Source: a virus (Duplodnaviria; Heunggongvirae; Uroviricota; Caudoviricetes). Taken from it: DNA of 6,359 bases. Positions 2,821 to 6,359 of the stretch are shown here, piece after piece. How positions within the stretch are numbered: the stretch's first letter is position 1; each line of letters starts with the position of its first letter. The translations under genes were made by a program, and so were the position numbers. Location: IMG/VR virus record IMGVR_UViG_2619619134_000014. One strand, given 5' to 3'. A model generated the notes under the pieces. That model searched no databases, was not told the DNA's origin, and was given only the letters and a program-made list of their open reading frames with translations.

Positions 2821-3309
2821 TCAATCAAGATTGATTCCGAATGGGTAACCAAATGGGATGCTGCTGAAAACACGCAGGTAGAAGCCGTCAAAGGTGGTCG
2901 TTCCGGTGCAATGAAGCGCGCTGCCGTTCAGTGGGGAATCGGTCGGTATCTGTATAACCTTGAGGAAGGTTTCGCACAAACATCTCTCGACAAAAAGCAG
3001 GGATGGCACAGGGCAAAACTCAAGGATGGAACAGGATTTTACTGGCTCCCTCCATCGCTGCCGGGCTGGGCAATCCCAGCATCAGATAACAAACCATCAC
3101 CAGAAAATACCAACCAGAAATCTCCATCGGTTGACTGCGAACAAATCCTGAAAGACTTCAGCGATTATGCAGCGACAGAAACTGACAAGAAAAAACTCAT
3201 CGAGCGTTATCAGCGTGACTGGCAATTAATGGCTGGCAATGAGGATGCGCAGGCTAAATGCGTTCAGGTAATGAACATCAGAGTTAACGAGCTAAAACAG
3301 GCGGCATAA
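2821..3309 (+). pseudogene. erf: C-terminal fragment of a Rad52/Erf-like single-strand annealing protein (ORF from Met 2911 is 132 aa; protein-like frame is open from about 2821)
   Basis: The frame reads ...AVKGGRSGAMKRAAVQWGIGRYLY..., resembling the conserved KRA..FG.G motif region of Rad52/Sak-type annealing proteins. The C-terminus (CEQILKDFSDYAATETDKKKLIERYQRDWQLMAGNEDAQAKCVQVMNIRVNELKQAA) closely resembles the P22 Erf C-terminus as I recall it. The 150 or so residues that should precede the motif are absent, and upstream in-frame sequence before about 2821 is not protein-like. Confidence 0.6.
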
Positions 3310-5216: not shown

Positions 5217-5303
5217 TGAAAACAAGTATTTATAACTTAAAAGCATTAAAAAATCGCTTATAGATCAAAAGAAATCTACGTCAAATATTACTATATTTCA
5301 ATG

Positions 5304-5312
5304 TGTTATAAT
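5304..5312 (+). promoter_or_regulatory. putative sigma70 extended -10 promoter element (TGtTATAAT) in an AT-rich intergenic region
   Basis: TGTTATAAT at 5304..5312 is a perfect -10 hexamer with the TGn extension, about 30 nt upstream of ATG 5343. No convincing -35 is present, consistent with an extended -10 promoter. The surrounding 5217..5340 is visibly AT-rich. Confidence 0.4.
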
Positions 5313-5342
5313 TACCCCGTACATAAAATGGGGGGACACAAA

Positions 5343-5585
5343 ATGTTCAAACGCTGCATCACCAAGTGTGGAAGCACACCTGACATCCAAGCTTTTATTA
5401 ATGAAGATGGTAAGCTTGTTGTTGAGAGGAGTGGTCCTTTTATTAGCAAACAACTTATCATTACCTCTCCAGCGGAGATGGCCGGGGAATGGATAGTTTC
5501 TGAACCAGAGGAGTTGCACATCCCGCTTCCTTATGGCCCTCAGGGACTGATTTATAACCGTTATGTTCAGAAGGAGGCGGGTTGA
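5343..5585 (+). CDS. hypothetical small protein (80 aa), moron-like
   Basis: Internal ATG of track ORF 5301..5585, with a G-rich SD-like GGGGGG about 7 nt upstream. Translation MFKRCITKCGSTPDIQAFINEDGKLVVERSGPFISKQLIITSPAEMAGEWIVSEPEELHIPLPYGPQGLIYNRYVQKEAG. No family recognised. Confidence 0.5.
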   Translation: MFKRCITKCGSTPDIQAFINEDGKLVVERSGPFISKQLIITSPAEMAGEWIVSEPEELHIPLPYGPQGLIYNRYVQKEAG

Positions 5586-5661
5586 CAATGTCAGGCATAA
5601 CATCGCCGAGAAATCGAAAGAAAAACAGAACAAGGTAAACGTTGACCTTGCAGCATCAGGC

Positions 5662-5844
5662 ATGGAGTACAGAGAGCGCCTTAACATACCTGTTATCACT
5701 GAGCAGGTATCATGAGAGCAACCTGAGCACTCACGCGAGTATTTCATGGAGCGCATCAGATACTATCGCGAGCAGTCGTTAAACATGCCCAAGGGAAGCA
5801 ACCCATGGTATATCGATATGGATGAACAGAACGCCAAGAAGTAA
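5662..5844 (+). pseudogene. small ORF interrupted by an in-frame TGA at 5713..5715 (about 60 codons if read through); candidate decayed gene
   Basis: Manual translation of one frame gives MEYRERLNIPVITEQVS-stop-EQPEHSREYFMERIRYYREQSLNMPKGSNPWYIDMDEQNAKK-stop. The same frame is open back to 5551. A second frame carries AAGGAGG (5571-5577) followed by ATG 5588 encoding only 16 basic residues (MSGITSPRNRKKNRTR). An intrinsic terminator follows. Confidence 0.35.
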
Positions 5845-5864
5845 ACGCAATTTGAACGAATGCG

Positions 5865-5890
5865 AACCCGCCGAGTGCGGGTTTTCTTTT
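5865..5890 (+). terminator. putative Rho-independent terminator
   Basis: AACCCGC (5865-5871), loop CGAGT, GCGGGTT (5877-5883), followed by TTTCTTTT. This is a 7-bp GC-rich stem with a T-rich tail, 20 nt after the TAA at 5842-5844. Confidence 0.6.
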
Positions 5891-5933
5891 ATCTGAACTC
5901 GCTACGGCTAGTTTTGTTTTATGGAGATGATAA

Positions 5934-6101
5934 ATGCACTTCCGAGTCACAGGTGAATGGAATGGAGAACCATTCAACAGAGTTATCGAAGCGGAGAACA
6001 TCAACGACTGCTATGACCACTGGATGATATGGGCGCAGATAGCGCATGCAGACGTAACCAATATTCGAATTGAAGAACTGAAAGAACACCAAGCCGCCTG
6101 A
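5934..6101 (+). CDS. hypothetical small protein (55 aa)
   Basis: Below the ORF-track size cutoff; found manually. GGAG lies 7 nt upstream of ATG 5934. Translation MHFRVTGEWNGEPFNRVIEAENINDCYDHWMIWAQIAHADVTNIRIEELKEHQAA. It is flanked by intrinsic terminators on both sides. Confidence 0.55.
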   Translation: MHFRVTGEWNGEPFNRVIEAENINDCYDHWMIWAQIAHADVTNIRIEELKEHQAA

Positions 6102-6114
6102 TGGCGGTTTTTTA
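6093..6114 (+). terminator. putative Rho-independent terminator overlapping the stop codon of the 55-aa gene
   Basis: GCCGCC (6093-6098), loop TGAT, GGCGG (6103-6107), followed by TTTTTTATT. The TGA stop (6099-6101) lies in the loop. Confidence 0.6.
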
Positions 6115-6158: not shown

Positions 6159-6359
6159 ATGCAACACGAACTACAACCTGATTCACTGGTTGATTTGAAA
6201 TTCATCATGGCTGATACTGGCTTCGGTAAGACCTTCATCTATGACCGGATTAAGTCCGGCGACCTGCCAAAAGCCAAAGTTATCCACGGGCGAGCAAGAT
6301 GGTTATATCGTGACCATTGTGAATTCAAAAATAAGCTCTTAAGCCGCGCCAATGGGTAA
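6159..6359 (+). CDS. alpA: AlpA-family phage regulatory protein / excisionase-like DNA-binding protein (66 aa)
   Basis: Translation MQHELQPDSLVDLKFIMADTGFGKTFIYDRIKSGDLPKAKVIHGRARWLYRDHCEFKNKLLSRANG fits the AlpA/Vis-type helix-turn-helix pattern (..TG.S..TIY..I..G.FP.P.K.G.R...W.). GGAG lies 9 nt upstream of the ATG. Confidence 0.72.
   Translation: MQHELQPDSLVDLKFIMADTGFGKTFIYDRIKSGDLPKAKVIHGRARWLYRDHCEFKNKLLSRANG

Follow-up and report, generated by a model that had tools for sequence, protein, structure and literature searches.

Relatives of the interrupted frame in the theta/HOT family

Theta, a small subunit of DNA polymerase III, and its phage homologue HOT bind and stabilize epsilon (DnaQ), the proofreading subunit of this polymerase, and HOT is able to replace theta in stabilizing epsilon (PMC2528190). 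The theta/HOT family and its occurrence on temperate phages are already known, with annotated copies in P1, in HK639 and in phages of Klebsiella, Serratia, Proteus, Yersinia and Pectobacterium. The locus described here lies in a 6,359-nt stretch of phage DNA (hereafter the window) and already carries a pseudogene label in RefSeq, where an identical sequence equivalent to positions 5563–5844 is annotated by PGAP as 'DNA polymerase III subunit theta (internal stop)', for example as HF562_RS07655 in E. coli SCZE5 and in the copy in E. coli IAI1. All ten RefSeq records that we inspected carry the PGAP pseudogene flag, nine as 'internal stop' and one as 'frameshifted'. The RefSeq entry records the internal stop but neither the displaced start nor the origin of the stop from CGA; our analysis adds both of these, as well as a series of independent second lesions.

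One frame of the window, frame 1, is open from 5551 to 5844 except for a TGA at 5713–5715. It is directly preceded by another TGA (5548–5550) and translates as FITVMFRRRRVDNVRHNIAEKSKEKQNKVNVDLAASGMEYRERLNIPVITEQVS, stop, EQPEHSREYFMERIRYYREQSLNMPKGSNPWYIDMDEQNAKK, stop. Upon re-translation we recovered exactly the positions given in an earlier note on this DNA for the frame, its TGA, a Shine–Dalgarno (SD) sequence and a 16-codon ORF. The features of the locus are listed below, with the basis for each in parentheses.

5343–5585, + strand: upstream 80-aa phage ORF of unknown function, with its stop TGA at 5583–5585 (ORF list; RefSeq WP_000476264.1)
5571–5577, + strand: SD sequence AAGGAGG of the ancestral hot start, 10 nt before ATG 5588 (sequence)
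5588–5638, + strand: 16-codon stump ORF, MSGITSPRNRKKNRTR and stop, in a frame other than frame 1 (translation)
5594–5598, + strand: 1-nt deletion, GGCAT for GGYCAT, which parts the start codon from the gene body (alignment A1)
5599–5844, + strand: hot/theta-like gene body in frame 1, NIAEKS...NAKK, with stop TAA at 5842–5844 (Pfam, PDB, PGAP)
5713–5715, + strand: premature stop TGA for Arg43 (CGA) in the AREQPEH motif, inside helix 2 (homologues, sister alleles)
5864–5893, + strand: intrinsic terminator-like hairpin and T run, 3' of hot (terminator scan)

With its stop masked, the frame-1 product matches the Pfam family DNA_pol3_theta (PF06440) at 98.9 bits, above the curated cut-off of 34.6 (E = 1.3e-28), over profile positions 2–67 of 70, and it also matches phrog_1105 (E = 1e-31). 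Its alignments to phage P1 HOT (PDB 1se7, E = 2.7e-29) and to E. coli theta (PDB 1du2, E = 5.7e-16) both run across the stop. Because the Pfam and P1 HOT matches continue across the stop, the openness of frame 1 is not due to chance. The repaired translation aligns to HOT residues 5–77 (1se7, 2ido) with ~70% identity and contains the same KVNVDLAASG, REQPE and YFMER motifs. Both genes are phage-borne, but the window copy is broken by a start-proximal frameshift and a nonsense codon, and it sits in the early-left region of a P22/Sf6-like lambdoid prophage rather than in P1. E. coli HolE (theta; 1du2, 2ae9, 2axd) belongs to the same Pfam family and aligns over residues 3–67; it is an intact chromosomal housekeeping copy of 76 aa, whereas the window holds a diverged, dead phage paralogue. 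The closest intact relatives are 85-aa theta homologues from lambdoid phages and prophages of Escherichia, Citrobacter, Klebsiella and Salmonella (74–79% amino acid identity), including P0004–P0006, that of phage HK639 and that of Klebsiella phage 2b LV-2017, which share the MSGH-NIA start and, unlike the window copy, are intact. In another intact homologue, the E. coli prophage locus L007, the gene lies in the nin region and not beside xis, as it does in the window.

An uninterrupted ORF of ~76–87 codons with its own start and ribosome-binding site is absent from the window. Codon 43 is TGA and codon 3 carries a deletion, which makes the sequence a family pseudogene rather than a functional member. 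The intact homologue P0004, modeled with AlphaFold (pLDDT of 79.6), has helices spanning residues 11–31, 38–44 and 47–64. Because the stop at residue 43 falls inside helix 2 of this model, a window product ending there is predicted to lose helix 3 and, with it, the three-helix fold.

A one-base deletion at the start and a stop at Arg43

The start of hot is indicated by its homologues, 99 of 120 of which are 85 aa long and 103 of 120 of which have exactly four residues, most commonly MSGH, before N-I-A. The intact gene of L007 begins ATG TCA GGT CAT AAC ATC GCA (M S G H N I A), with the SD sequence GAGGGGG before the ATG. At the same place, the window reads ATG TCA GGC AT AAC ATC GCC, in which Gly codon 3 is one base short (alignment A1: window ATGTCA-GGCATAAC versus intact ATGTCAGGTCATAAC). 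This alignment identifies ATG 5588 and AAGGAGG as the original hot start. Only 2 nt separate this ATG from the stop of the upstream 80-aa ORF, a normal spacing for coupled genes in an operon. The upstream ORF matches phrog_9613 (E = 3e-50), returned no match in a Pfam search and is intact in 48 of 49 related loci. A 152-aa antisense ORF at 5298–5756 has no match in PHROGs and was taken as spurious. The other candidate start, ATG 5563, is in frame 1, and no SD-like sequence lies within 15 nt upstream of it (TTTATAACCGTT ATG).

The 16-codon ORF is accounted for by the same missing base. Its ATG-TCA-GG comprises the first hot codons and, because Gly codon 3 lacks one base, the remainder is a frameshifted stump; it is basic because the A-rich stretch that encodes KSKEKQNK is read out of frame. 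The stump is not conserved, since its ATG is AGG in L004 and its SD sequence is AAGAAGG in L005. The earlier note had assigned the strong SD sequence to a competing short basic ORF. That SD sequence, ATG and frame were correctly read, but they belong to the displaced start of hot and not to a separate element.

The internal stop aligns to the Arg of the A-R-E-Q-P-E motif in the HOT and theta alignments. This column is Arg in 119 of the 120 best database homologues, the exception being a Trp in P0001, and the Arg is invariant (119 of 119) once P0001 is set aside as an artefact. We rejected the Trp of P0001 as an ancestor of the TGA, as its sole contig, L004, has TGA in its DNA, and the gene (L004 493–774), read with the bacterial code, does not translate to the listed protein. 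The gene caller evidently applied a TGA = Trp code to a short E. coli-like contig, and the resulting false 'intact' 93-aa protein could mislead searches for revertants. At the stop site, the sister alleles L005, L006, L023, L029, L033 and L040 have CGA, the intact gene of L007 has CGT and the Klebsiella phage gene of L003 has AGA. Because the sister alleles carry CGA, the lesion is a C-to-T transition from CGA to TGA. The stop had been suggested to derive from TGG; both the sister alleles and the homologues point instead to CGA, encoding Arg43.

These comparisons suggest a two-step course of decay. The ancestral hot gene would have comprised ~85 codons from ATG 5588, served by AAGGAGG and placed 2 nt behind the upstream gene. 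Loss of a base from Gly codon 3 would have sent ribosomes from this SD/ATG pair out of frame to a stop after 16 codons, leaving the rest of the gene as an open frame without its own ribosome-binding site. The gene body presumably drifted after the start deletion, and the C-to-T change in the codon for the invariant Arg43 would then have cut the protein inside helix 2. Ribosomes loading at the SD/ATG pair of the window would make only the 16-residue peptide, and functional HOT would not be produced. Every allele of the subfamily has the start-proximal deletion, which is why we place it before the nonsense mutation, an order that we consider likely.

Sister alleles and competing readings

The allele is present in 92 of 5,426 complete E. 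coli genomes and is always chromosomal. Its copies are set apart by a gap in identity, at ≥95% versus 60–80% for all other hot/holE genes in these genomes. A 61-nt segment spanning the TGA is identical in 72 complete E. coli genomes, and another of 61 nt spanning the start is identical in 82. No intact close allele was found in the complete E. coli genomes; all ten of the close copies inspected there have T at 5713, and none is intact. A search of 5.8 billion protein clusters likewise yielded no full-length intact protein above 79% identity (P0003 being the best). Two closer cluster proteins were rejected, P0001 as a translation artefact and P0002 as a frameshifted fusion.

To include alleles with either codon at the stop site, we used a degenerate pattern accepting CGA or TGA, which retrieved 30 IMG/VR and 13 metagenome contigs. 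The 56 related loci comprise 22 haplotypes, and the codon-3 deletion is present in all 56 with the site covered. Most alleles have TGA at 5713. In L018, a TAG at 5716 follows straight after this TGA; L061 has a TAG at 5773, L029 a 2-nt deletion at 5697–5698, and L005, L006 and L033 a 1-nt deletion at 5802. Further changes include ATG 5588 to AGG in L004 and Pro to Leu within EQPEH in L013. The alignments thus reveal at least five independent disabling lesions downstream of the common deletion (at 5713, 5716, 5773, 5697–5698 and 5802). Frame 1 is uninterrupted in only one of the 22 haplotypes, h12 (L023), in which it runs for 93 codons from ATG 5563.

The same hot pseudogene has undergone further decay events in E. 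coli ML775, NT1W25 and HE302 (L010, L011 and L012). Among these three loci we observed a deletion that fuses the truncated erf to hot codon 2, an IS3-family element abutting the hot start and an IS100 inserted inside hot at approximately window position 5650.

We consider it very probable that the region is a dead phage-borne hot gene, an ordinary pseudogene. Its homology to the theta/HOT family extends across the lesion, the family has intact members, and a number of independent lesions are seen in relatives. Sequence comparison establishes that the frame is homologous to theta and HOT, in which direction each of its two lesions arose and that sister alleles have lesions of their own, and it finds no conserved recoding signal. 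Decay by nonsense and/or frameshift was also the reading preferred in the earlier note, and it is borne out by the intact homologues and by the sister alleles with other lesions. The alignment with homologues that the note had proposed yielded intact 85-aa forms and located both lesions, the codon-3 deletion and the CGA-to-TGA change. Neither short ORF proved to be conserved as such, whereas the long frame is.

Against a gene dead since the deletion, an N-terminally extended HOT from ATG 5563 may have worked in the ancestor of the subfamily, because frame 1 of L023 is open from this ATG. On such a reading, the functional form would be a 93-aa protein whose gene overlaps the upstream gene by 23 nt, the codon-3 deletion would be an old tolerated change and the TGA would be the sole inactivating lesion of the window. 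L023 combines the 93-codon open frame with Arg (CGA) and a normal C terminus, and PGAP also models the pseudogene from ATG 5563. We nevertheless regard this single-lesion history as unlikely: ATG 5563 is without an SD sequence while a strong SD/ATG pair (5571–5590) is kept in the wrong frame, the frame is open in just that one haplotype, and alleles no more than 4% apart carry four other independent disabling lesions, which fits a loss of constraint since the common deletion. The window copy is dead under this reading too. It is far less probable that the region holds independent small genes, whether the 16-aa basic peptide, a 50-aa N-terminal HOT fragment and/or a 32-aa ORF at 5746–5844. Separate PHROGs families do match residues 1–50 (phrog_10131) and 42–93 (phrog_29833) of the conceptual protein, but both probably represent fragments of this same pseudogene called as ORFs in prophages that are nearly identical, a sign of repeated ORF calling rather than of conservation. 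In L004 the 16-codon ORF has no ATG and in L005 its SD sequence is partly gone, the fragments gather stops, frameshifts and radical substitutions, and a protein ending at residue 43 would lack helix 3 of the modeled three-helix fold.

Programmed recoding, by a –1 slip in the 16-codon ORF (for example, at CGA-AAG, 5615–5620) and/or by readthrough or selenocysteine insertion at UGA 5713, has very little probability. An A-AAG tetranucleotide and an A-rich run do lie inside the stump ORF, and the 60 nt 3' of the UGA fold slightly better than shuffled sequences (z = –2.1). Intact genes have the A-rich run too, however, and there it simply encodes KSKE(E/K)Q(D/N)K as part of the ancestral coding sequence. 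Neither the shift site nor the stop is conserved, the homologues having Arg in 119 of 119 cases and an in-frame start, and the sister alleles CGA; this agrees with the lower rating that the earlier note had given to frameshifting and readthrough. No recognizable stimulatory RNA element was identified, and neither SECIS nor any other Rfam family was detected at E ≤ 1 across the whole window. The downstream frame is not kept by selection, as it has acquired stops (5716 and 5773), deletions (5697–5698 and 5802) and IS insertions, and some alleles add a stop to the supposed signal (TGA TAG in L018, TAG in L061) or lose ATG 5588 (L004). Two independent low-efficiency events would, moreover, both be needed. 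Similarly slight is the chance that the crippled allele is kept for use, through trace amounts of full-length HOT (from a –1 slip at CGA-AAG combined with UGA readthrough), or through a helix-1-only fragment or the 16-aa basic peptide acting on the epsilon of the host; if true, this would explain the occurrence of the same TGA allele in about 90 of 5,426 genomes and in several prophage backgrounds. An error of sequencing or assembly as the source of the stop or the frameshift can be excluded for practical purposes, because the allele recurs in independent assemblies: the same states are found in 72 and 82 complete E. coli genomes, respectively, and in 43 IMG/VR and metagenome contigs from unrelated projects.

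The dead-gene reading removes a candidate recoding site; beyond correct annotation, its importance is slight. Pseudogene fragments of this kind contaminate protein databases, here as a protein with a Trp-translated TGA and as two PHROG families. Of these families, both described as 'unknown function' and probably built from pseudogene fragments, phrog_10131 ends exactly at the TGA.

Constraint and prophage context

Polymorphisms in hot and three neighboring genes were counted across the same related loci, as follows.

hot body: 5 synonymous, 12 nonsynonymous, 3 stop changes, 2 indel events
torI: 9 synonymous, 0 nonsynonymous, 0 stop changes, 0 indel events
downstream 55-aa ORF: 13 synonymous, 11 nonsynonymous, 1 stop change, 0 indel events
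upstream 80-aa ORF: 9 synonymous, 16 nonsynonymous, 1 stop change, 0 indel events

Set beside those of torI, the counts of the hot body favor decay. With a crude pN/pS of 0.68, however, the hot body differs little from the intact upstream 80-aa ORF (0.52), and the polymorphism ratio alone is therefore weak evidence. Outgroups polarize the following substitutions on the window lineage: V>M, A>E, A>S, R>stop, L>M and V>I, with no synonymous change; the first five of these all fall at columns that are near-invariant in homologues. The locus offers a small, clear example of the stepwise decay of an accessory prophage gene beside a strongly conserved excisionase gene, torI. Across the related loci, torI (6159–6359) has ten nucleotide haplotypes and a single protein sequence. 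The protein sequences of the three small genes upstream of it (5343–6101) are freely variable, with a stop in the 80-aa ORF of L023 and a broken 55-aa ORF in L019, L036 and L037.

The window belongs to a defective P22/Sf6/HK620/KplE1-like prophage. Its early-left genes, on the + strand, run from the truncated erf through ssb, abc2, DUF2737, DUF7739, an Ea22-like gene, the 80-aa ORF, the hot pseudogene and a 55-aa ORF to torI/xis; torI adjoins dsdC in related genomes. The features to the left of these genes, together with erf, are the following.

1–276, – strand: IS1 insA, a complete 91-aa frame (Pfam Zn_ribbon_InsA and HTH_Tnp_IS1)
310–498, – strand: ninH, 33 nt from IS1 insA
310–2216, – strand: nin region (ninH, ninG, ninX, ninB)
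2416–2742, – strand: 108-aa ORF between the nin region and erf (phrog_343, unknown function)
2911–3309, + strand: truncated erf, retaining only positions 119–153 (the last 35) of Pfam Rad52_Rad22

With insA at the left edge of the window, 33 nt from ninH, IS1 appears to have cut the nin/Q side of the prophage. The nin region, in which ninB ends at 2216, lies only ~700 nt from erf, and homology to Sf6-like early-left DNA begins at 2796. This proximity of nin to a truncated erf indicates that the immunity, N, kil and replication genes have been deleted and that the prophage is defective. Such a defective prophage, which carries an IS1, has only part of erf and lacks the immunity and replication region, is a setting that supports the reading of hot as dead. 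None of the complete E. coli genomes is collinear with the window, the best coverage being 54–55%.

The slot between hot and torI (5934–6101) is variable. The window and many genomes have the 55-aa ORF there (phrog_676), with its own terminator at 6091–6110, and other genomes have an unrelated 114-aa ORF; in some, a different excisionase replaces torI. The variable slot and the excisionase swaps suggest that recombination has moved the hot pseudogene into several prophage backgrounds.

A further relic of hot, unannotated and internally deleted, is present in the Salmonella prophages Gifsy-1 (L062 640–790) and Gifsy-2. Each relic fuses an N-terminal piece, FNIAAKSQEDRDKV, to the C-terminal end, RYMEMSEQNTKK and stop, in a different frame; behind it lies the same terminator hairpin as that at window 5864–5893, with 86.7% identity over 90 nt.
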